Shown piece by piece: positions 2,478 through 62,124 of a stretch of 64,000 nucleotides of DNA; positions within the stretch are counted from its first letter, which is position 1, and every line of letters begins with the position of its first letter. The stretch spans positions 990 through 64,989 of the forward strand of contig JAFGCQ010000004.1 of NCBI GenBank assembly GCA_016932555.1, read 5' to 3'. The DNA comes from Candidatus Zambryskiibacteriota bacterium (GTDB lineage Bacteria; Patescibacteriota; Minisyncoccia; Phycocordibacterales; WO2-35-19). A program made the position numbers and the translations under genes. Under the pieces are notes generated by a model, which made no database searches, had not been told where the DNA came from, and saw nothing but the letters and a program-made list of their open reading frames with translations.

Positions 2478-2507
2478 CAGACTACTTGTCCTGAGTTGAG
2501 CCGAAGG
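2478..2507 (+). repeat. GC-rich short repeat CAGAYTACTTGTCCTGAG..GAGYCGAAGG, intergenic copy
   Basis: About 26/30 identical to 6036-6065 inside gatA, same orientation. Confidence 0.7.
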
Positions 2508-2646
2508 AGTGGTTTACTATGAGCCTGTCGAATAGACGATGCCCGCCACGTGATAAATTGTGTAGCAATTTATTTTACGTGGTTAGAACTGCAATTATGA
2601 GTAACCACACGCATTTTCCTGAAATAATTTATGCTAAAATAACTTC

Positions 2647-3129
2647 ATGAAGAAAATCAATATTTATATTGATGGAAATAATCTTTATCGCAGTGCCAAA
2701 GAACTCGGATTTGAAATTGATTATAAAAAATTTAGAGGCTGGCTTCGCCAAAAATACAATCCGCAATTTGTTTATCTTTTCATAGGTCTCGTTCCAGAAA
2801 GGGCAAAATTCTATGAATATTTGCAAAAATCAGGGTTTATTTTGGTTTTCAAACAAACCGTATCGGTTGGAGAAAAAATAAAGGGAAATTGCGATGCAGA
2901 ATTAGTGTTAAAAACCACTTCTGATTTTTATACCAAAGCTTTTGATTCCTGTATTTTAATAACAGGAGATGGGGATTTCGGCTGTTTGGTAGAATTCTTG
3001 CAAGAAAATAAATCGATGAATCGTGTTATAGCTCCCGATGAAAATAAATGCTCTTTTTTATTAAGAAATAAAAATGTTGAGATAACATTCTTAAACGACC
3101 ACTACCACAAGTTTTCTAAAAAGATATAA
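2647..3129 (+). CDS. NYN/LabA-like domain protein (putative RNase)
   Basis: INIYIDGNNLY ... ITGDGDFGCLVEFL pattern typical of NYN/LabA domains. Confidence 0.65.
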   Translation: MKKINIYIDGNNLYRSAKELGFEIDYKKFRGWLRQKYNPQFVYLFIGLVPERAKFYEYLQKSGFILVFKQTVSVGEKIKGNCDAELVLKTTSDFYTKAFDSCILITGDGDFGCLVEFLQENKSMNRVIAPDENKCSFLLRNKNVEITFLNDHYHKFSKKI

Positions 3130-4541: not shown

Positions 4542-4618
4542 TGGTGCCGACGATTGGACTCGAACCAATGACCTGGCGCTTATGAAACACCCGCTCTAAC
4601 CACCTGAGCTACGTCGGC
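4542..4618 (-). tRNA. tRNA with CAT anticodon (Met, or Ile2 if lysidine-modified), CCA encoded
   Basis: Canonical cloverleaf: acceptor GCCGACG/CGTCGGC, anticodon loop TTCATAA, T-loop TTCGAGT. Confidence 0.85.
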
Positions 4619-5609: not shown

Positions 5610-7079
5610 TTAAGTTGTCTCTCCCAGAAAATTTTTGCCAATTTCGAATAAAACATTTTCATTGCCATGAGCAGACATAAGTTGTATGCCAATCGGCAGA
5701 TCTTTGTCATTTATTTTAGCAAATCCAGACGGGATCGAAATAGCGGGTATGCCGGCGATATTAGCTGTAACCGTAAAAATATCAGCCAGATAATTTTCTA
5801 AGGGGCTAGTTTTTTCTCCTATCTTCCAGGCTGGTGTCGGAGCCGTCGGAGTTAAAACTACATTTACTTCATTAAAAGCTTTATTGAATTCATTCTTAAT
5901 AACTTCTCTAGCTGCCATAGCTTTGCCATAATAAGCGTCATAATAGCCGGCTGAGAGCACGTAGGTGCCAAGTATAATCCGCCTTCGTACTTCCGGACCT
6001 AAGCCTTCACCCCTAGTTTTTTTGTAAACTTCCATCAGATTACTTGTCCTGAGCGGAGTCGAAGGGTTGCCGTCCAAAGATAAACCGTATTTGATACCAT
6101 CATATCTGGCCATATTTGATGAGACTTCTGCCGGCATAATTATGTAATAAATAGTGAGTGATTTGTCTATATTTGGTAGTTTAATATCTTTAATTTCAAA
6201 ACCCAAATTTTTTAATTTTTCTACTGATTCTTCAAAATTTTCTTTCACTTCTCTCGAAATACCATCCTGCTCAAGTAAATGATAAGGCACGCCGATTCTT
6301 AAATCCCGAGATGAATCTTGGAGTGACCCGACCGATTTGCCGTCATGGCGGACAGGAATATGCGAAGTGCTATCATACTTGTCCTGACCTTTTATAACAT
6401 TAAAAATTATTTCAGCATCAGCAACTGATTTAGTGATAGGTCCTATTACATCAAGAGATGACCCCATGGCCATAAGGCCATAGCGAGATACGCTGCCGTA
6501 AGTTGGCTTCAACCCTACACAGCCACAAAAGCTGGCTGGTTCCCTGATTGAACCACCCGTATCCGATCCTAAGGCTCCTAGAGCCATATTAGCCGCTACA
6601 GCGGCCGCAGAGCCACCAGAAGAGCCACCAGCTACTTTTTCCGGATCATGGGGATTTCTGGTCACTCCAAACGCTGAATTCTCGGTAGAGCCACCCATAG
6701 CGAATTCATCCATATTGGTTCTGCCTATAAATATTCCATTTTGTTCAAGAATTTTCTTCGCTGCAGTAGCTGTGTATGTCGCTTTGTAATTTTCTAAAAT
6801 CTTAGAAGCAGCGCTGGCCTTCTTGCCTTTTATTAAAATATTATCCTTTATAGCTAAAGGTATACCGGTTAAATCTTTGGAATCGCCTTGATCAATGATT
6901 TTTTGAGCCAATTTGGCTTGCTCTAAAATATCATCATAAACTTCCAAATAAATATTAAGTTCTTTATTTTTATCTTCAATCTGCAGAAGGGCACCTTCTG
7001 TAAGTTCTTTAGCCGAAATCTCTTTGCTATCTAGCAATTTTCTCGCTTCTTTAATTGTCAAATCTTCTATTTGTGTCAT
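5610..7079 (-). CDS. gatA: Asp/Glu-tRNA(Asn/Gln) amidotransferase subunit A
   Basis: Amidase signature GGSSGGSAAAVA and full-length GatA-like sequence, followed by gatC. Confidence 0.9.
   Translation of the reverse strand: MTQIEDLTIKEARKLLDSKEISAKELTEGALLQIEDKNKELNIYLEVYDDILEQAKLAQKIIDQGDSKDLTGIPLAIKDNILIKGKKASAASKILENYKATYTATAAKKILEQNGIFIGRTNMDEFAMGGSTENSAFGVTRNPHDPEKVAGGSSGGSAAAVAANMALGALGSDTGGSIREPASFCGCVGLKPTYGSVSRYGLMAMGSSLDVIGPITKSVADAEIIFNVIKGQDKYDSTSHIPVRHDGKSVGSLQDSSRDLRIGVPYHLLEQDGISREVKENFEESVEKLKNLGFEIKDIKLPNIDKSLTIYYIIMPAEVSSNMARYDGIKYGLSLDGNPSTPLRTSNLMEVYKKTRGEGLGPEVRRRIILGTYVLSAGYYDAYYGKAMAAREVIKNEFNKAFNEVNVVLTPTAPTPAWKIGEKTSPLENYLADIFTVTANIAGIPAISIPSGFAKINDKDLPIGIQLMSAHGNENVLFEIGKNFLGETT
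6036..6065 (+). repeat. GC-rich short repeat, in-frame copy inside gatA (encodes PSTPLRTSN)
   Basis: Matches 2478-2507. Local GC island in an AT-rich gene. Confidence 0.7.
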
Positions 7080-7415: not shown

Positions 7416-10052
<2,637 letters not shown>

Positions 10053-11860: not shown

Positions 11861-12689
11861 TTAAGAGAAATTTAATCTGAAAAATATCCAGATTTAATAA
11901 AAAGCTCAAAATAATTCCCAAAGAAAGGAAAGGGCCGAAGGGAATTTCAGATTTAATTGTAAAATTATTACTGAAAAGGGGCAAGTTTATATGTGATTTA
12001 ATTTTCTTAATTAATAAAACTAAAACTGAAAAAACCGCTCCTATCCAAAAAGCCAAAATTATCGCCGATAATCCCATCGCCGGCCCCAAGAAAAAACCTA
12101 AAACCGCTATGTATTTAACATCACCAAAACCGAACCAACGTCCTTTGGATATGAGAAATATTAACAGAAATGGGAGAGCCAGAATAATGCCCGTTACTAA
12201 ATTAAACAAGATTGCAGGCAAGCTTAGAGCTAAAAGCTTAAAGCTTAGAGCAAAAACAAAAAAGGCGATAAGAAAAGCGTCGGGGATAATAAAATGTTTG
12301 AGATCGTAAATAGAAATAAGTAAAATAATCGAAAATAAAGCCGTAATCAAAAGAAAACTAATTCCCATCTCTAAGCTCCAAGCTCTAAGCTCTAAGCTTA
12401 AAAAACCTGTCTCAAACGCCACTAAGACAACTAGAATACCCATGATTATCTCTATAATTATTGCCGATATTGGTATTTTAGCTTGACAGTATCGACATCT
12501 ACCTTTCAAAAATAAAAAAGAAAAAATGGGAAACAAATCTTTATTTTTAAGTTTAGTATTGCAAGAAAAACAAATTGAACGGCCCTTAAAAAAAGGTAAA
12601 CCCGTATTATACCGATCTGCTATAACACCCACAAAACTTCCTAAAGCAGTTCCAAATAGAAATATGACAACATCCCACAAATATAACAT
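11850..12689 (-). CDS. pilD: Prepilin peptidase (A24 family)
   Basis: Cys-rich CFSC...CRYC segment, multiple TM helices, IYDLKHFIIPD and GFGDVKY catalytic Asp motifs. ATG at 12689 preferred over the TTG at 12722. Confidence 0.8.
   Translation of the reverse strand: MLYLWDVVIFLFGTALGSFVGVIADRYNTGLPFFKGRSICFSCNTKLKNKDLFPIFSFLFLKGRCRYCQAKIPISAIIIEIIMGILVVLVAFETGFLSLELRAWSLEMGISFLLITALFSIILLISIYDLKHFIIPDAFLIAFFVFALSFKLLALSLPAILFNLVTGIILALPFLLIFLISKGRWFGFGDVKYIAVLGFFLGPAMGLSAIILAFWIGAVFSVLVLLIKKIKSHINLPLFSNNFTIKSEIPFGPFLSLGIILSFLLNLDIFQIKFLLNVF
12223..12250. repeat. Heptamer array CTTRRAG x4 inside pilD
   Basis: Inverted relative to the array at 12369-12396. Confidence 0.8.
12369..12396. repeat. 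Heptamer array CTCYAAG x4 inside pilD
   Basis: Reverse complement of the array at 12223-12250, 118 nt away. Confidence 0.8.
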
Positions 12690-21061: not shown

Positions 21062-21727
21062 ATGTCTTTATTTAAATTAGTAAATAACTGGATAAAGAAA
21101 ACTAGAGAGTTAATTTTTGATATCATTGCGCCCCATAATCAAAATATTCACAAACTTTTACAGCTTCCTCCAGAAACAATGAGAGATCTTCTGCCAAAAT
21201 CGGCAGTTTTTATGAAAGATGTTTTTGTACTCTTTGATTATCAAAACAAATTGGTCAGATTAATCATCAAAGCTATCAAATATAAAAATAACAATAATTT
21301 ACGTAGACGCATTGCTGGTATTTTATATGAAGAAATAATGGTTATGGCTTCTGATACTTCATTATTTGAAAATTCAAAAATTGTCCTTTTGCCTATGCCA
21401 ATGAGTAAATTAGAAAAAAGAAAAAAAAATTTCAATCAATGTGAAGAGCTTTGTAAAGAAATCAAAAAATTAGATAACCAAAATATAGAAATTTCTTTTA
21501 ATACTCTTAAAAAAATCAGAGAAACTAAAAGACAAACCGAGCTTAGCCGTTCTGAAAGAGAAAAAAATGTTAAAAATAGCATGAAAGCTACTCTTCAACA
21601 AGATCAGAGTCGCGTAGTTATCGTCTTAGATGATGTCTACACGACTGGTGCCTCTTTCAAAGAAGCTCGCCGAGCTCTTCTTTCTGCCGGTGCTCAGAGG
21701 ATAATTGGCCTTTTTATCGCCCATTAA
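21062..21727 (+). CDS. comF: ComF-family phosphoribosyltransferase
   Basis: VIVLDDVYTTGASFKEA PRPP motif. ATG at 21062 preferred over the TTG at 21038. Confidence 0.7.
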   Translation: MSLFKLVNNWIKKTRELIFDIIAPHNQNIHKLLQLPPETMRDLLPKSAVFMKDVFVLFDYQNKLVRLIIKAIKYKNNNNLRRRIAGILYEEIMVMASDTSLFENSKIVLLPMPMSKLEKRKKNFNQCEELCKEIKKLDNQNIEISFNTLKKIRETKRQTELSRSEREKNVKNSMKATLQQDQSRVVIVLDDVYTTGASFKEARRALLSAGAQRIIGLFIAH

Positions 21728-34544: not shown

Positions 34545-35363
34545 TTATAGATTATAGTAGCATAAATCTGATAAATTTTGAAATAAACAAGCTATAGTTA
34601 GAGGTCCGATACCTCCCGGTACTGGTGAAATTGCTTTTAATTTATTAACTAATTCAGTAAAATCAACATCGCCCACTATTCTATCTTTCATCTTGTTTAT
34701 TCCTACATCAATAACTACCTGTTCTGGATTTATAAATTTCTCCGTTATAATACCTGCTTTACCGACAGCTGAAATTAATAAGTCGCATTTTTTTGCAATT
34801 TTTTCCGGATTTTTGGTATTGATGTCACAGCGAAAAACTTTTGCACCTCTTTTTTCAAGCTCATCAGCTATAGGTTTACCAGCTAAAATTGACTGGCCTA
34901 TAACTGCCGCTTTTTTGTCTTTAATTTCAAAATTATAAAAATTTAACAACGATATAACTGCACGTGCTGTGGCTGGAATAATTCCACTTCCTGATACTAG
35001 CCCGTCTACATCTTTTCTTTTATCAATCAAATTTATTATCTTTTCTGAATCAAAACCTTTAGACCTGCCTGCGCAAGCAGGTAATGGTAACTGTACAATA
35101 ATTCCATCTACGCTTTTATCTCCATTTAATTTTTTAATCTCTTCTATTAATTCTTTCTCAGTAATATCTTCGTTAAAATTCTTTAACAAAACTTCTACTC
35201 CGATCTCCTCTCCAAATTTGCGCTTGTTTTTAATATAAATACTTGAATCCGGCCGATCTCCAACTTGCACAATGGCTAAACAAGGCTTGCAGCCCAATTT
35301 TTTTACCCTCCTTATTAAATCTTCTTTAATTTTCTCCTTAACAGGAGCCCCATATAAAATCAT
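34545..35363 (-). CDS. folD: Bifunctional methylene-THF dehydrogenase/methenyl-THF cyclohydrolase
   Basis: VQLPLP and GGIGPLT motifs; carries the palindrome insert ACAGRSKG after LPLP. Confidence 0.9.
   Translation of the reverse strand: MILYGAPVKEKIKEDLIRRVKKLGCKPCLAIVQVGDRPDSSIYIKNKRKFGEEIGVEVLLKNFNEDITEKELIEEIKKLNGDKSVDGIIVQLPLPACAGRSKGFDSEKIINLIDKRKDVDGLVSGSGIIPATARAVISLLNFYNFEIKDKKAAVIGQSILAGKPIADELEKRGAKVFRCDINTKNPEKIAKKCDLLISAVGKAGIITEKFINPEQVVIDVGINKMKDRIVGDVDFTELVNKLKAISPVPGGIGPLTIACLFQNLSDLCYYNL
35063..35082. repeat. 20-nt near-palindrome ACCTGCCTGCGCAAGCAGGT (one mismatch), in-frame in folD
   Basis: Variant of the 1432/61388 palindrome. Confidence 0.85.
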
Positions 35364-49588: not shown

Positions 49589-50692
49589 ATGAGGTACGAG
49601 ATAAAAATAGAAAAATTGCCAAAATCTGAGGTAAAACTGGAAATATCACTTCCAGCCGAATTTTTAGATGAAGCTAGAAAAAAAGCAATAAGGAAATTTT
49701 GCGCTGAATTGGAGGTACCGGGATTCAGAAAGGGTAATGTGCCGGAAAATATCGCCATCGAAAAAGTCGGTGAAAACAAAATATTACAGGAAGCAGTGAA
49801 TATCCTCCTACAGGAACATTTTCCAAAAGTGATAGAACAGGAAAAACTTGATATAATTGGTCGACCGAATATTTCTATAACTAAGCTAGGACTCGGCAGC
49901 CCAACAGAATTTAAGGTTGAGTTCGCTACTCTGCCCGTTTTCAAATTGCCAGATTATAAAGAGATAGCAAAAAAATTAAGAATTGCGAATAACGAATCAA
50001 GAAAAGAAAAAAAGATAGAAGTCACTGATAAAGAGGTTGACGATGTACTTTTACAAATCCGGAAAAATAAGGCTCATTTTGATTGGCATAAAAGTCATCC
50101 AGAAGAGAAATCCGCCCAAGGCGGATCCGCCTTGGACGGAGGCCACAATCATCCAGAAATAAGAGATGAGGATCTGCCGCCACTGGATGATAAATTAGCA
50201 GAGGAAGCTGGTAATTTCAAAAATTTGGATGAACTTAAGGCCAAAATCAAAGAAAACATAAAATTCGAAAAAGAAAATAAAGAAACCGAAAAATTAAGAG
50301 CCGAAATTATGGAAGAATTATTAAAAGCGACCAAAATAGAAGTTCCAGATATATTAATAGAGAGCGAAATCGATAAAGCTTTAGCCCAGATGAAAGGTGA
50401 TATTGGAAGAATAGGTGTTAAATTTGAAGATTATCTAAAGCAGGTCAAAAAAACTGAAGAGGATTTGAAGAAAGAATTAAGTAGTAGCTCAGAAAAAAAA
50501 GCCGGCATCCAGCTTATCTTTAATAAAATTGCCGAAGCTGAAAAACTTGAGCCTAACAAAGAAATTTTAGAAAATGAAATTAAACACCTGATGGAGCATT
50601 ACCCCGACGCCTCCGAACAAAACGCCCGCATTTATGTTACCACCATTCTCCTAAACCAAGAAGTATTAAAACTTTTAGAAAATCAAAAATAA
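49589..50692 (+). CDS. tig: Trigger factor, apparently lacking the PPIase domain
   Basis: N-terminal ribosome-binding domain (GFRKGNVP) joined directly to the C-terminal arm domain through a short linker. Confidence 0.8.
50111..50140. repeat. 30-nt near-perfect GC-rich palindrome, in-frame in tig
   Basis: TCCGCCCAAGGCGGATCCGCCTTGGACGGA. The central 18 nt are perfectly palindromic; one mismatch in the outer arms. Confidence 0.85.
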
Positions 50693-57220: not shown

Positions 57221-57240
57221 GAAATAAGTATAACATAAAT

Positions 57241-57285
57241 CCCCCACTCGGGACTAGTCCTCGACCTCCCCTTGATCAGGGGAGG
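57241..57285 (-). repeat. Family B-related GC-rich element (hairpin CCTCCCCT-TGATC-AGGGGAGG)
   Basis: Shares both ends with 57657-57702; direct repeat flanking the DUF559 gene. Confidence 0.6.
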
Positions 57286-57305
57286 CAATGCGCGATAATT
57301 AGGAA

Positions 57306-57656
57306 ATGACAAGAGTTCATAATATCCGCAAACTTTCAGATCGCAGGAAAGAATTACGAAAAAACCAAACAAAAACCGAAGAAAAACTCTGGTGGTATTT
57401 GAAAGATAAGAGGCTGGGAATTAAATTCAGAAGACAGCACAGTATAGGAGGATATATTTTAGATTTTATATGCAAAGAAAAGAAATTGATTATAGAAATT
57501 GATGGTAGAGTACATTTGAAAAAAGATAATAAAGAATACGATAAAGTTAGAGACAAATATTTTGAAGAGTTAAATTATAAAGTTCTGAGATTTACGAATG
57601 ATGAGGTTGAAAATGGGGTTAAAGAGATTATTGATGTTATAAAGCGGTATCTTTAA
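57306..57656 (+). CDS. DUF559 (Vsr-like) endonuclease-domain protein
   Basis: TEEKLWWYLK...FRRQHSIGGYILDF...IEIDG..H...D..RD..L...GY.VLRF pattern. Confidence 0.8.
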   Translation: MTRVHNIRKLSDRRKELRKNQTKTEEKLWWYLKDKRLGIKFRRQHSIGGYILDFICKEKKLIIEIDGRVHLKKDNKEYDKVRDKYFEELNYKVLRFTNDEVENGVKEIIDVIKRYL

Positions 57657-57702
57657 CCCCCACCCCTCAATTCGTGTAGCCCTTCTCTTGATCAGGGGAG
57701 GG
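57657..57702 (-). repeat. Family B GC-rich element, inverted copy
   Basis: Its reverse complement aligns along the whole length of 58407-58451 (about 80 percent by eye). Confidence 0.75.
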
Positions 57703-57724
57703 AAAACCAAAATCATACAAAAAG

Positions 57725-58322: not shown

Positions 58323-58406
58323 TGTTGGCTCCTTTCACCCATTAGGTCTGACTCAGGTTATACAACAATATAAAAATTAAAGCAAGAATAAAAAATACCG
58401 CGCGTT

Positions 58407-58451
58407 CCCTCCCCCGTCCAGGGGGAGGGCTACACGAAGTGAGGGGTGGGG
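58407..58451 (+). repeat. Family B GC-rich element abutting the secY stop codon
   Basis: CCCTCCCC-CGTCC-AGGGGGAGGG hairpin plus CTACACGAAGTGAGGGGTGGGG tail. Confidence 0.75.
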
Positions 58452-58452
58452 A

Positions 58453-59724
58453 TTAATATTCTCTTGCAGAGATTTGAGCATCAACTTTTTTAACGAGATC
58501 AAGAACCACTGAAACTACGATAAGAAGTCCTGTACCGCCTATAGCCACTGCGCTGATACCAGTAGCCGCCCTTACTATTAAAGGCAAAACAGCAATTAAT
58601 CCCAAGAAAATAGCGCCAATCATGGTTAAACGGGAAAGGATTTTGGCTATATATGAGGAAGTCGAGGAACCGGGTCGAACTCCCGGAATAAAAGCACCGC
58701 CTCTCTGTAAATTTTTGGAAAGATTCTCCGGATCAAAAGTAATAGCTGTGTAGAAATAAGTAAAAACAAAAACTAATAAGAAGTAGGCAATGCCATAAAA
58801 AATCTGGTTAGAAAGCAAAGCAAGTAGAAATTCAGAAATCTTTTGGATTATAGTATTGTCTACATTAGCTAAAAAGCGGATTATCATTTGAGGAAAAAGT
58901 AATATGGAAAGAGCAAAAATTATAGGAATCACCCCAGCTTGATTAACTCTTAAAGGTAAATAAGTGGAAACTCCACCATACATTTTATTACCTCTAACTT
59001 GTTTAGCGTAAGTTATCGGTATGGGTCTTTCTGCTTCAGTAATAACTACTACACCCCAAATCACTGCTATGGCAGCCGCCAGAAAGCCAATATACATCGG
59101 CAATTGAGATGGATCAAAAGCAAATAAAAGCTGGCTAGTCGCACTGGGTAAAATAGCAACAATGCCGGCAAAAATGATAAGCGAGACTCCGTTACCAATA
59201 CCAAATTCAGATACTAACTCACCAAGCCACATAAGAAGCATTGAACCGGCAGCAATTACTATAAGATTTGTTAGCAATTCAAAACCAGCAAGTTTACTTA
59301 AAACATTCTGATTTTGAAGAAGAATAATAAAAGCATAACCTTGCATTAAAGCTAGAGGCACAGTCAAAAATCTTGAATATTGAGAAAATTTTCTGCGTCC
59401 TAATTCACCCTCTTCTTGATACATAGCCTTGAGTTTAGGAAACATAACAGTCATAAGCTGCATAATAATAGAAGCGGTAATATATGGCGACACACCGAGC
59501 ATAATAATTGAAAGATTAGACAAACCACCACCCGAAAAGATATTTAAAAGTCCAAAGAAATCATTATCAGACATAAACTGCTCTAATTTAAAAGTATCAA
59601 TACCGGGAATTGGGATAGAGGCCATCAAACGGAAGAGAGCCAACATTACAAGGGTAAAAATTATTCTCTTTCTTAAATTTTTATCCCCTAAGACTAATTT
59701 TATTTTGTGAATAAAATTTTGCAT
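58453..59724 (-). CDS. secY: Preprotein translocase subunit SecY
   Basis: Ten-TM SecY sequence; follows rplO. Confidence 0.95.
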   Translation of the reverse strand: MQNFIHKIKLVLGDKNLRKRIIFTLVMLALFRLMASIPIPGIDTFKLEQFMSDNDFFGLLNIFSGGGLSNLSIIMLGVSPYITASIIMQLMTVMFPKLKAMYQEEGELGRRKFSQYSRFLTVPLALMQGYAFIILLQNQNVLSKLAGFELLTNLIVIAAGSMLLMWLGELVSEFGIGNGVSLIIFAGIVAILPSATSQLLFAFDPSQLPMYIGFLAAAIAVIWGVVVITEAERPIPITYAKQVRGNKMYGGVSTYLPLRVNQAGVIPIIFALSILLFPQMIIRFLANVDNTIIQKISEFLLALLSNQIFYGIAYFLLVFVFTYFYTAITFDPENLSKNLQRGGAFIPGVRPGSSTSSYIAKILSRLTMIGAIFLGLIAVLPLIVRAATGISAVAIGGTGLLIVVSVVLDLVKKVDAQISAREY

Positions 59725-61153: not shown

Positions 61154-61705
61154 TTAAACTGTTTTCTTACCTTGTTTTCTTCTTATAATTTCATTCTCAT
61201 AACGAAAACCCTTGCCTTTATAAGGTTCCGGTTTTTTTAAGCTTCTTACTTTGGCAGTAAAAGCTCCGACTAACTCTTTATCAAAACCAAATATAGTAAT
61301 GAGATTCTTTTCAGCTTTTACTTCCAAGCCGTCAGGGATTAGAACTTCTACCGGATGGGAAAAACCCAGAGAAAGAATCAACTTATTGCCTGCCTGCGCA
61401 GGCAGGCCATTAACTTGGGATTTAAAACCTACGCCTTCTAATACTAATTTTTTTTCAAAACCATCATTAACTCCTTTTATCATGTTTTTTATATGAGAGG
61501 CATAAGTACCCCATAGAGCCTTAGTTTGATTATTTTCTTTGGGTATAGAAAGATTGATATGATTTTCTTCAATTTTAATTACTACATCATCACGAAATTT
61601 TCTTTCCAATAAACCTTTTGGACCTTTCACAAAAAAAACGTTATCTTTTAAGGAGACTTCTGTACCTGGTAGTATCTTTATTTCTTTTTTACCTATTCTT
61701 GACAT
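61154..61705 (-). CDS. rplF: 50S ribosomal protein L6
   Basis: MSRIGKK start; two L6 repeats; carries the insert GLPAQAG before [12 protein letters not shown]. Confidence 0.9.
61388..61407. repeat. 20-nt perfect palindrome GCCTGCCTGCGCAGGCAGGC, in-frame in rplF
   Basis: Self-complementary; same core as 1432-1449. Confidence 0.9.
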
Positions 61706-61731
61706 AATTATTTATAGTGAGCGTAGTCGAA

Positions 61732-62124
61732 CTACCAAATATTAAACAAATGTTCTCCTCCTAAATTTTCTTTTTTAGCATCAACATCGGTTCTAATACC
61801 TTCAGGAGTCGAAAAAATCGACATGCCAAAACCTTTCTTAAAAATTTTTATGTCCTTAGCTTTAGTATATAAGCGTCTTGATGGCTTAGAAATTCTTTTA
61901 ACTTCAGAGATTACCGGTTTTCCATCCTCTTGATATAATAATTCTACCTCCAGAGATTTTGTGCTGCCGCGACTTTTTTGACTTACATTACCAAGATAAT
62001 TTTTAACAGACAAAAGTTCAGCAATAGCAAGCTTTAAATTGGAAAAAGGCACGGAAACTTTTTCCTTTTTCATAATACTTGCATTCTTCACTCTTATTAT
62101 AAAATCTCCTATTGGATCGTTCAT
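61732..62124 (-). CDS. rpsH: 30S ribosomal protein S8
   Basis: MNDPIGDFIIRVKNA start. Confidence 0.9.
   Translation of the reverse strand: MNDPIGDFIIRVKNASIMKKEKVSVPFSNLKLAIAELLSVKNYLGNVSQKSRGSTKSLEVELLYQEDGKPVISEVKRISKPSRRLYTKAKDIKIFKKGFGMSIFSTPEGIRTDVDAKKENLGGEHLFNIW

Follow-up and report, generated by a model that had tools for sequence, protein, structure and literature searches.

Small dispersed repeats (SDR) of the Nostocaceae were reportedly described by Elhai et al. (2008; Genome Res 18:1484) as "very small mobile repeated elements". They are dispersed sequences of about 21–27 nt, the mobility of which has been inferred from comparisons of filled and empty sites, and they insert into other short repeats, e.g., HIP1 (PMC5861425, PMC3116915). 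SDR have been reported only in the Nostocaceae, i.e., heterocyst-forming cyanobacteria (PMC5861425). Ssn-related motifs (SRM/NTS) and the Ssn GIY-YIG single-strand nucleases were presented more recently (Chenal et al., 2025; PMC11893778): the motifs are short, GC-rich, oriented repeats of many phyla, which flank small single-domain GIY-YIG genes in a gene-between-repeats layout resembling an insertion sequence, and which are recognised only as single-stranded DNA (PMC11893778). The nucleases themselves act on single-stranded DNA with site specificity, and repeats of their own flank them (PMC11893778). REP/REPIN with RAYT (Y1 HUH) and the "peel and paste" elements IS200/IS605 represent another mode, in which short non-autonomous repeats are thought to be moved in trans as single-stranded DNA, without target duplication and with an orientation tied to the replication strand (PMC3116915, PMC3333891). 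REPs carry a GTAG or CGTC tag at one end (PMC3733652). REPs and REPINs are mostly vertically inherited and specific to species groups. Finally, Rickettsia palindromic elements (RPE) are in-frame insertions in housekeeping genes that are unrelated to one another, in a bacterium with a reduced genome; the host protein gains a peptide segment and is not destroyed by it (PMC1779305, PMC10969869).

Here, we analysed a 64,000-nt stretch of DNA of a Zambryskibacteria genome (the window), in which a GC-rich 30-mer had been noticed within gatA. The reading that we moderately favour (probability about 0.6) is that this 30-mer is a copy of a very small, GC-rich, non-autonomous insertion unit of many bacterial phyla, the movement of which as single-stranded DNA is inferred. 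With a length of 24 nt, the unit falls within the range of SDR, and it resembles them in being dispersed in unrelated contexts and in showing mobility by filled and empty sites; however, it occurs in more than 10 phyla with near-identical sequence. To our knowledge, neither a mechanism nor an enzyme has been described for SDR or for the 24-nt unit.

The unit resembles SRM/NTS in being a short, GC-rich, oriented repeat of many phyla; its core adjoins GIY-YIG genes in Sphingomonadales, and units often lie in loops of NTS-like hairpins. In contrast to the SRM, which is an inverted repeat of 20–50 nt that forms a hairpin, the unit is almost stemless. None of 274 units matches the pattern HGTCWYN(0-2)YYVSBRHN(0-5)WNVSBRGN(0-2)RNCYNB, nor does any sequence in the window, whereas the NTS positive control does; moreover, the unit is not enriched beside canonical Ssn genes (1/80 loci), and SRMs are not known to insert precisely as 24 nt. 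The strand bias of the unit and its precise, duplication-free insertion recall REP and IS200/IS605, but its consensus contains neither GTAG nor CGTC on either strand and no clear palindrome (REPs are imperfect palindromes of 20–40 nt), it is neither confined to intergenic spacers nor lineage-specific, and no RAYT is found nearby. Unlike MITEs, which have terminal inverted repeats and a target-site duplication and usually exceed 50 bp, the unit measures 24 nt and leaves no duplication. The likeness to RPE is restricted to in-frame residence: RPE are palindromic, 100–150 bp long and limited to Rickettsia, while the unit is 24 nt long and found in many phyla.

Copies of the Unit in the Window

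The initial annotation had reported a 30-nt repeat at 6036-6065, in gatA, which was about 26/30 identical to a stretch in the same orientation at 2478-2507, upstream of an NYN gene. Identity (26/30) and orientation held when the two 30-mers were compared, and the pair was recovered as repeat family D12 in a repeat search of the window. A degenerate 22-mer spanning both copies had two exact matches in the window vs. none in 100 dinucleotide-preserving shuffles, and a crude binomial estimate puts the number of pairs this similar (at least 26/30) that chance would produce in 64 kb at 0.008-0.07. Taken alone, the window pair is only moderately significant; it becomes secure because an external 24-mer family exists. 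The length of 30 nt needs correction: the true unit comprises 24 nt (6043-6066), with CCCTTCGACTYCGCTCAGGRCARG as consensus and cross-phylum pattern, read on the minus strand, while the last six nucleotides of the 30-mer, AATCTG (Asn-Leu), are native gatA sequence. The features are as follows:

5610-7079, minus strand: gatA, host gene, Asp/Glu-tRNA amidotransferase subunit A, 489 aa (TIGR00132 equivalog, 553.6 bits vs. a cut-off of 481)
6043-6066, minus strand: 24-nt insertion unit CCCTTCGACTCCGCTCAGGACAAG in gatA; exact match to the cross-phylum pattern, unit profile E = 4e-7
2485-2508, minus strand: second copy of the unit, TCCTTCGGCTCAACTCAGGACAAG, within the divergent spacer (290 nt) that precedes the NYN gene; profile E = 4e-4
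2517-2535, minus strand: putative AT-decayed related unit cTATTCGACAGGCTCAtAG, adjoining the intergenic copy, with the TTCGAC-NN-GCTCA core of the 11-nt-spacing variant
61718-61731, minus strand: possible third, decayed copy, of which only the core TTCGACTACGCTCA remains; weak profile match (E = 0.25), tentative
2647-3129, plus strand: NYN-domain gene (PF01936 NYN, E = 4e-16), downstream of the intergenic copy; context only, outside the unit

The NYN gene is thus confirmed as annotated. The intergenic copy deviates from the consensus at three positions and has the 3' end GGACAAG in common with the gatA copy, which is rare in the family (6/126 units of the viral set). It had been said to continue into gagcctgtcgaa, which instead belongs to the second, AT-decayed unit at 2517-2535. 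This unit is placed in the family by its core alone, an inference from sequence alone; the same core with 11-nt spacing of the half-sites is present in eight units elsewhere. The core at 61718-61731 sits in a spacer of 26 nt, with the stop codon of ORF 61732-62124 on one side and the start codon of ORF 61154-61705 on the other.

The family is low-copy in this organism, with 2-3 copies per 64 kb in the window, and a profile scan of about 100 kb of DNA of relatives revealed no unit beyond gatA, except for one partial copy. With so few copies in these Zambryskibacteria, the data do not demonstrate that the unit moves within this genome.

A Sharply Bounded Unit in Many Phyla

Scans with the 24-mer returned at least 120 stretches in viral contigs and at least 120 in genome contigs; both numbers are lower bounds, not genome-wide counts. 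The genome-contig matches stem from more than 10 phyla, isolates included, and the 24-mer is present in Acidobacteriota, Chloroflexota, Nitrospirota, Cyanobacteria, isolates of Bacteroidota, Proteobacteria and other Patescibacteria, and also in Anabaena, Trichormus and Nostoc. The contexts are unrelated: units lie in spacers, in coding sequence (in several frames), within the loops that other repeats form, and in a segment immediately 5' of a 5S rRNA gene. Sub-variants, tandem arrays and units nested within other units occur as well. A putative origin from tRNA, raised by weak profile matches at the 5' ends of tRNA genes, was discarded as coincidence, as the geometry is unlike that of a tRNA arm.

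The near-identity of a 24-mer in metagenome-assembled genomes (MAGs) of every phylum resembles a contaminant, which raises the possibility of an artefact, i.e., chimeric assembly or a contaminating or synthetic oligonucleotide in many assemblies. This explanation can practically be ruled out: the same gatA allele is found on a separately assembled Logan contig (run SRR13394437), orthologous copies from different studies (ENA Hainich, JGI) carry lineage-specific substitutions, the copies lie in frame within an intact essential gene, and a decayed copy exists (L004, see below). Furthermore, the unit resides in complete plasmids of cultured Sphingomonas, Trichlorobacter, Nostoc and Pseudanabaena, and the sub-variants, arrays and nested arrangements are at odds with a contaminating oligonucleotide.

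Information content is limited to positions -1 to +23 and drops to zero in the flanks; the unit thus has sharp boundaries. In 84% of units, a C directly follows the insert on its 3' side. In nine pairs of filled and empty sites outside gatA, from unrelated hosts, the gap is exactly 24 nt and no target duplication is seen, which shows that the unit enters DNA as exactly 24 nt without target-site duplication. Flanking stems of at least 6 bp surround 9.8% of units vs. 1.3% of controls; other palindromes thus often hold the unit in their loops. Of 237 units, 153 are found on the strand that is locally richer in G (p = 9e-6), a rule obeyed by both window copies.

An alternative without any mobile element is that templated repair or gene conversion produces the 24-mer, whereby break-prone or permissive sites receive short patches from other copies or from incoming foreign DNA. 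In favour of this view, Patescibacteria have genes for type IV pili and competence adjoining gatA, a GC-rich unit in a genome of 35% GC suggests a foreign source, the GatA loop gathers other small GC-rich inserts, and the intergenic copy shares five of six bases with the native gatA flank AATCTG. However, templated repair predicts variable lengths and microhomology at the junctions, while the nine pairs are exactly 24 nt with identical ends in unrelated hosts and sequence information ends sharply at the unit ends. Nesting of unit in unit and a replication- or transcription-linked strand bias also fit a defined substrate better. We therefore regard this alternative as unlikely.

It is also conceivable that the unit has a function, e.g., in binding or as a structural signal in RNA or DNA, and is kept by selection, in the gatA mRNA among other places, so that it would not be selfish DNA. 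The extreme conservation across phyla and the biased orientation would agree with this, as would the co-variation of positions -1 and 18, where T at -1 is found only with A at 18 (18 cases) and T-G pairs are absent; moreover, transformation of Neisseria is modulated by Ssn-type repeats (PMC11893778). Yet, C-A mismatches at this co-varying, closing pair are common (39/126), Rfam searches of the window and of 18 unit-bearing loci gave no family at the unit, and the contexts are unrelated. The potential stem of the unit itself is just 3-4 bp (CCC/GGG), and shuffled sequence folds as well as the gatA region does (z = 0.24, 0.36); the value of z ~ -2 for the intergenic region is due only to an unrelated AT-rich hairpin at ~2545-2585. 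Finally, the L004 and intergenic copies are decaying towards AT, which indicates that this organism does not maintain them. A functional site is thus highly improbable.

An In-Frame Insert in a Variable Loop of GatA

The window GatA is 100% identical to a protein of a Candidatus Zambryskibacteria MAG. The unit enters gatA within the codon immediately after that of Gly337, between its second and third bases, and remains in frame, encoding (N)PSTPLRTS and adding eight amino acids; on the minus strand, the copy reads CCT TCG ACT CCG CTC AGG ACA AGT AAT CTG, i.e., PSTPLRTS-NL, within GatA. The empty site in the ortholog loci L005 and L006 is GGN GA|A AAT, and the comparison of filled with empty orthologs reveals no target duplication here either. 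No hairpin was found at the gatA target site.

The solved GatA structures of Aquifex and Thermotoga show a 7-8 residue gap where the insert lies, and the eight residues are missing from about 105 of the 120 closest orthologs. An AlphaFold2 model predicts the insert in coil between two helices, and low confidence at residues 325-375 means that the model supports no more than this placement. Entry of the unit into a variable GatA loop in this Zambryskibacteria genome, with addition of PSTPLRTS, is thus shown, the helix and coil placement resting on the low-confidence model, and the unit might be a neutral passenger in a permissive loop, as we infer. Genes tolerate the unit because 24 nt equal eight codons and five of its six reading frames are free of stop codons. 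In other low-GC genomes, long ORFs likewise contain units, in either orientation and in several different frames.

The assertion that GatA orthologs are shorter at this point therefore held, as did the remark on ghost peptides in metagenomic proteins: LRLRSGQ, PSTSLRAG and PFDSAQGR are the translations of the unit in its three forward frames. In the literature searched, no relevant paper was found for the ghost peptides or the DNA words of the unit. The inference of a small mobile or recombining element able to sit in frame is supported, since the three checks proposed with it were all favourable: there are not just two copies but at least 120 stretches in each of the viral and genome collections, most orthologs lack the segment, and target duplications are absent from gatA and from the nine pairs elsewhere. 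The exact 24-nt boundaries, the spread over many phyla, the repeated gain at one gatA codon and the low copy number here go beyond the initial annotation.

Repeated Gain at One Position of gatA

Beyond that of the window, near-consensus copies occupy one and the same nucleotide position of gatA in at least three other, non-sister lineages of Zambryskibacteria; the filled sites at this position include those of the window, L001 and L003. One further lineage (L004) has an AT-decayed gatA copy with 14/24 identity to the window copy, and P0029, a sister protein of the L004 lineage, retains a 4-residue remnant; old copies thus decay towards AT or become partly deleted. A search with a 69-residue GatA fragment for more insert-bearing orthologs returned short fragments only.

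The insert-bearing GatA proteins were monophyletic in none of 200 bootstraps. P0009, which bears the insert, is nested in a clade with five empty orthologs (200/200 bootstraps), and the insert-bearing P0095 groups with six empty orthologs (183/200). The rival to separate gains is that the ancestor of these Zambryskibacteria acquired the insert once, long ago, and that it was then lost precisely many times, each time independently. In support of this scenario, all gatA copies share nucleotide position, orientation and frame, 4-residue variants exist at the insert site, the deep branches of the GatA tree are poorly resolved (e.g., P0005 with P0003 in 37/200 bootstraps), and precise excision is in principle conceivable for a cut-and-paste unit that duplicates no target.

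However, a single gain requires precise loss of 24 nt in most of the ~105 empty orthologs across the tree. Moreover, the copies in the window and L001 both still match the cross-phylum consensus at 24/24 positions, despite ~45% divergence at synonymous sites of the gene; under neutrality, the probability of at most three differences in 24 is 7.5e-4. The nucleotide identity of the insert ranks in the top 12% of sliding windows across gatA, which is not decisive alone because gatA is so conserved. The sole clearly old copy, that of L004, is decayed. The 4-residue inserts of P0031, P0103 and P0016 were rejected as unit remnants, since their DNA is a different, 12-nt palindromic element. A single gain is hence unlikely, and gain of the unit at one gatA nucleotide position in several separate lineages is shown.

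The GatA loop of other lineages carries such unrelated 12-nt palindromic inserts, and in other phyla other repeat-like peptides. As unrelated inserts share this loop, recurrence at the same site could reflect selection on a permissive loop and not targeting. Recurrence at one gatA codon may thus stem from target preference, from selection for the sole tolerated position and frame, or from both, which remains a matter of inference.

Candidate Enzymes

Under the preferred reading of a non-autonomous insertion unit, a sequence-specific enzyme supplied in trans would move the 24-mer as single-stranded DNA, by cutting at both unit boundaries and joining the 24-mer into exposed single-stranded sites. 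These steps are inferred and not shown, and no mobilising enzyme for the unit has been identified. The best candidate may be a small, Ssn-like GIY-YIG nuclease; an HUH-type enzyme would be the other option.

The unit core adjoins small Ssn-like GIY-YIG nuclease genes in Sphingomonadales, including locus L248. Among homologs of a Sphingomonas GIY-YIG nuclease, 67/120 end in read-through tails that translate the unit family (RALRLRSGRTE, PSTSSGRTE, VRPEPVEG), compared to 2/120 GatA proteins as a rough control. However, a GIY-YIG gene lies within a few kb in only 4 of 250 unit-bearing loci, and the window contains neither a GIY-YIG ORF nor a Y1-transposase ORF. GIY-YIG nucleases are not known to perform strand transfer.

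Two more specific links were rejected. In 80 metagenome loci with canonical Ssn genes, NTS-like repeats flank 46/80 and the 24-nt unit 1/80; Ssn-like gene loci thus carry NTS-like repeats and not the unit. The Y1_Tnp gene that L001 carries near gatA is found at no other locus and is not accompanied by a unit, and no Y1_Tnp ORF was found in the 250 unit-bearing loci.

Implications

A bolder reading, which is possible but clearly less likely than not, is that the 24-mer might be the smallest self-contained transposable unit yet seen in bacteria, a frame-neutral element of many phyla that is cut and pasted by a conserved, horizontally spreading single-strand DNA enzyme with target choice at the nucleotide level, such that the same gatA codon would have been struck repeatedly in separate lineages. 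If the insertion-unit reading is true, a defined 24-nt sequence is written precisely into the genomes of many phyla, including essential genes, and would be among the smallest mobile units known. This would imply an enzyme that excises and inserts a short single-stranded DNA tag at defined boundaries, which would be of interest for single-strand DNA tools, akin to the Ssn nucleases described in 2025.

The unit explains "ghost" peptides (LRLRSGQA, PSTSLRAG, PFDSAQGR, PELVEG and similar), which inflate the number of hypothetical-protein calls and lengthen protein C-termini in metagenome annotations. Its insertions also provide a natural map of insertion-tolerant loops in conserved proteins, and the repeated gain at one gatA codon offers a concrete, testable case of target preference vs. 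selection.

A Short GC-Rich Repeat in gatA

The window, with a GC content of ~35%, carries two GC-rich 30-mers (6036-6065 and 2478-2507), which the initial annotation had reported as 26/30 identical and in the same orientation and had read as a small mobile or recombining element; positions, orientation and identity all held. A degenerate 22-mer spanning both copies has exactly two matches in the window and none in 100 shuffles. Since a crude binomial estimate puts the chance pairs of this quality expected in 64 kb at 0.008-0.07, the pair by itself is only suggestive, and it is secured by external evidence for a family of 24-nt units.

Units, related sequences and host gene in the window
5610-7079, minus strand: gatA (TIGR00132, 553.6 bits)
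6043-6066, minus strand: full unit within gatA
2485-2508, minus strand: full intergenic unit, TCCTTCGGCTCAACTCAGGACAAG
2517-2535: cTATTCGACAGGCTCAtAG, variant core with 11-nt half-site spacing, 9 bases from the intergenic copy, its GC ends mutated to AT
61718-61731: bare unit core TTCGACTACGCTCA, a weak profile match to the core only

On the coding strand, the gatA repeat reads CCT TCG ACT CCG CTC AGG ACA AGT AAT CTG (PSTPLRTS-NL), and the encoded GatA is 100% identical to a MAG protein of Candidatus Zambryskibacteria (Patescibacteria). At the 3' end, the two full copies both read GGACAAG, a combination present in only 6/126 units of the viral set, and this rarity suggests a common source lineage. 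When 162 kb from Zambryskibacteria were searched with the unit profile, the matches were the gatA copies, the intergenic copy of the window, a partial copy in L003 (a relative's gatA locus) and the weak core at 61718-61731. With so few matches, the family is low-copy in the Zambryskibacteria DNA searched, and movement of the unit inside the window's own genome is not demonstrated. A spacer of 26 nt separates the stop codon of ORF 61732-62124 from the start codon of ORF 61154-61705, and the weak core, which could be a decayed third copy, takes up a large part of it. Both are minus-strand ORFs that we take, by eye only, to be ribosomal protein genes (S8 and L6). Weak profile matches in the 5' acceptor/D-arm region of tRNA genes (window 4603-4616; L005, another gatA locus, 21190-21202; L003 4420-4433), comparing CGACGTAGCTCAGG against CGACTNCGCTCAGG, are probably coincidental.

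Other repeats were also observed in the window. A GC-rich palindrome, CCTGCCTGCGCAGGCAGGC, occurs at 1418-1465, 35064-35087 and 61382-61419, its first copy within the coordinates of an M10-peptidase-like ORF (1002-1928) and its third within ORF 61154-61705; it is probably the GC-rich family that the initial annotation had counted as its first. A 52-nt inverted repeat pair (57653-57704 and 58405-58456; 85% complementary, 700 nt apart) is composed of GC-rich hairpins of the CCCCACCCCTCA...GGGGAGGG type; a related copy lies at 57239-57294. Runs of a short AAGCTCTAAGCTC-type tandem motif (7638-7682, 12220-12250, 12355-12399) pair in inverted orientation, both across ~4.7 kb and locally.

The Insert in GatA Orthologs

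In the solved GatA structures of Aquifex and Thermotoga, a gap of 7-8 residues falls exactly at the insert position, and ~105 of the 120 closest orthologs (68-76% identity) read G-[E/K/D/N]-[N/D]-L-L without an insert, so the earlier impression that GatA orthologs are shorter here was correct. The same eight residues are recognisable in four proteins among these 120.

Insert in GatA proteins (P) and gatA loci (L; inserted nucleotides in brackets)
P0001: PSTPLRTS
P0009: PSTSLRAS
P0005: PSTGLRPG
P0095: PSTPLGAG
P0006 and P0038: SLTSLESS
L005 and L006, empty: GGN GA|A AAT
Window, filled: GGC AA[C CCT TCG ACT CCG CTC AGG ACA AG]T AAT
L001, filled: GGC AA[C CCT TCG ACT TCG CTC AGG GCA AG]C AAT
L003, filled: GGC GA[C CCT TCG ACG GGG CTC AGG CCA GG]A AAT
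L004, AT-decayed: AGC TCT TTG ACT TCA CTT GAA TCA AGC

At the DNA level, the insertion comprises 24 nt that follow the second base of a single codon, without target duplication when the filled sites of the window, L001 and L003 are compared with the empty sites of L005 and L006. The insert is not an assembly chimera, because an identical GatA protein is encoded in a separately produced assembly, a Logan contig from run SRR13394437; an artefact is excluded as an explanation.

Spread Across Phyla

The initial annotation would have considered its reading refuted had only two copies existed and GatA orthologs shared the segment; there are more than two copies, and most of the closest orthologs lack the segment. 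The CCTTCGRCNNNRCTCAGGNCARG pattern is found in at least 120 stretches of viral contigs, in DNA of 37-74% GC and with unrelated flanks. The stricter CCCTTCGACTYCGCTCAGGRCARG, matched exactly by the gatA copies of the window and L001, is found in at least 120 stretches of species-representative genomes. CCCTTCGACTYCGCTCAGGRCARG matches occur in Acidobacteriota (many), Nitrospirota, Chloroflexota, Verrucomicrobiota, Planctomycetota, Gemmatimonadota, several Proteobacteria classes, Cyanobacteria (Anabaena, Trichormus), Bacteroidota isolates (Aequorivita sinensis, Flavobacterium sp.) and other Patescibacteria (Curtissbacteria, Kaiserbacteria). The unit is likewise present in complete plasmids from cultured Trichlorobacter, Sphingomonas, Nostoc and Pseudanabaena, and no Rfam family covers it in the window or the unit-bearing loci searched.

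Two individual locations may be recorded. In the isolate Flavobacterium sp. LS1P3 (33% GC; L176 25-48), a perfect unit precedes a 5S rRNA gene by ~110 nt, a position within the rRNA operon spacer or at the 23S 3' end. Trichlorobacter lovleyi plasmid pIAE1 has six unit-matching places, one of them (L249 3001-3028) within an annotated transposase CDS beside a sul1-qacEdelta1 segment.

Boundaries and Insertion Sites

A profile built position by position from 256 non-redundant copies shows information from -1 to +23, weak at +24 and zero in the flanks. In nine filled/empty pairs of loci, the gap is exactly 24 nt, both flanks align and no duplication is seen; the empty site belongs to the same locus in seven (L032, L063, L067, L076, L161, L164, L225) and to a different locus in two (L054, L088). 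The unit is defined, and inserts precisely without the flanking target duplication that had been sought. That the copies are patches left by templated repair is unlikely, and less likely than insertion of a mobile unit.

Units are also nested within other units and arranged in tandem arrays. About 10% lie between perfectly complementary flanks of >=6 bp, i.e., in the loop of another palindrome, compared to 1.3% of controls; the host palindromes include hairpins resembling NTS (repeats tied to Ssn GIY-YIG nucleases), GGGGCGCAAT/ATTGCGCCCC repeats and terminators. The CCCTTCGAC-form strand is the G-rich strand of the surroundings in 153/237 cases (p = 9e-6), a rule that both window copies obey. 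In five of its six frames the unit lacks a stop codon, and its 24 nt amount to eight codons; in other low-GC genomes it resides within long ORFs, in either orientation and in several frames. Exposed loops are preferred, a strand bias exists, the unit is tolerated in coding sequence, and copies decay after insertion.

One Gain or Several in gatA

In a tree of 120 GatA proteins (insert columns left out, 200 bootstraps), insert-bearing proteins are scattered among empty orthologs: P0009 falls inside a clade of five empty orthologs (200/200), P0095 groups with six empty orthologs (183/200), P0006, P0029 and P0038 group together (174/200), and all insert-bearers are never monophyletic (0/200). The window and L001 units differ at 3/24 positions, each variable across the family, with gatA synonymous sites ~45% diverged between the two; under neutral common descent, <=3 differences in 24 have p = 7.5e-4. 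The L004 clade shows that old gatA copies are not maintained: they have drifted to AT, and just four residues are left in the sister protein P0029. The most economical reading, and a likely one, is that several independent, fairly recent gains occurred at the same nucleotide and in the same orientation. A single ancient gain followed by many precise losses is unlikely, and retention of the unit as a selected functional site very unlikely; both are less probable than several gains.

The target in gatA is unstructured. The loop is clearly permissive, as other lineages carry 12-nt palindromic mini-inserts unrelated to the unit (TCCGCC-N4-GGCGGA in locus L330, ATTCGCCAGCTGGCGAAT in L331) and GatA fragments from other taxa carry repeat-like peptides there; a second GatA loop (residues ~240-255) shows different repeat-derived peptides again. 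Even so, four lineages agreeing in position, orientation and frame exceed what permissiveness alone predicts, with target choice and selection undecided. An AlphaFold2 model, of low confidence at the insert, shows merely coil between helices 304-330 and 346-355. We regard the unit in gatA as a passenger of this variable loop.

The 12-nt mini-element, an insert that gives rise to such palindromes, occurs in gatA of L330 (two sites), L331 and L332; it takes the unit's exact site in these other lineages and, in L330, a second site as well. ATCCGCCCAAGGCGGAT in the window (~50105-50140, near 50110) is a palindrome of the same type. In the second loop, the window has another GC-rich island (6319-6356, AGTGACCCGACCGATTTGCCGTCATGGCGGACAGG on the plus strand) with the extra residues KSVG, which is possibly a second, different small insertion; relatives carry repeat-like peptides there, e.g., SPLTPLLDAGEG, LTPSPSPCQGEG and HPDFVSTSPKLG. 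Separately, the pilin gene cluster that lies upstream of ligA-gatCA has received a Y1_Tnp (IS200-like) gene in just one Zambryskibacteria lineage (L001 3660-4316); the gene is absent from syntenic L004, L005, L006 and the window.

Relation to Known Elements and a Possible Mechanism

Ssn nucleases are site-specific for single-stranded DNA and lie between their own repeats like an insertion-sequence gene (PMC11893778), the layout of a GIY-YIG gene flanked by canonical NTS repeats in locus L028. On a Sphingomonas parapaucimobilis plasmid, a homologous gene of 106 residues follows two related units in inverted arrangement and terminates within a unit (C-terminus ...RALRLRSGRTRE). Read-through tails translating the unit family (RALRLRSGRTE, PSTSSGRTE, PSTGSGRTE, VRPEPVEG, LRQAQPER, SFDRLRTNG, in one frame or other) end 67/120 of its closest homologs, with 2/120 GatA proteins as a rough control. 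One limit on this link is that the unit is almost stemless. The published pattern of SRM, likewise an Ssn-associated repeat, matches 0/274 units; at 80 canonical Ssn gene loci the unit is not enriched (1/80, vs 46/80 for NTS-like repeats); a GIY-YIG gene is close by in only 4/250 loci that bear a unit; and neither a GIY-YIG nor a Y1 ORF was found in the window.

Known kinds of comparable elements are the SDRs of Nostocaceae (very small dispersed repeats, perhaps mobile), REP-like or Ssn-related motifs, and Rickettsia palindromic elements, which reside in-frame in genes as the unit does in gatA. In the literature searched, and with SDR sequences not compared, neither the 24-nt unit itself nor its near-identity between phyla, its exact duplication-free insertion or its repeated gain at one essential-gene codon is described.

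In the mechanism we propose, the unit would be handled as single-stranded DNA, either on the lagging-strand template or as transforming DNA entering the cell. An enzyme with sequence specificity, working in trans, would cut the unit at its two boundaries and insert the 24-mer at a different single-stranded site. The best lead is an Ssn-like GIY-YIG nuclease, with an HUH enzyme as the alternative.
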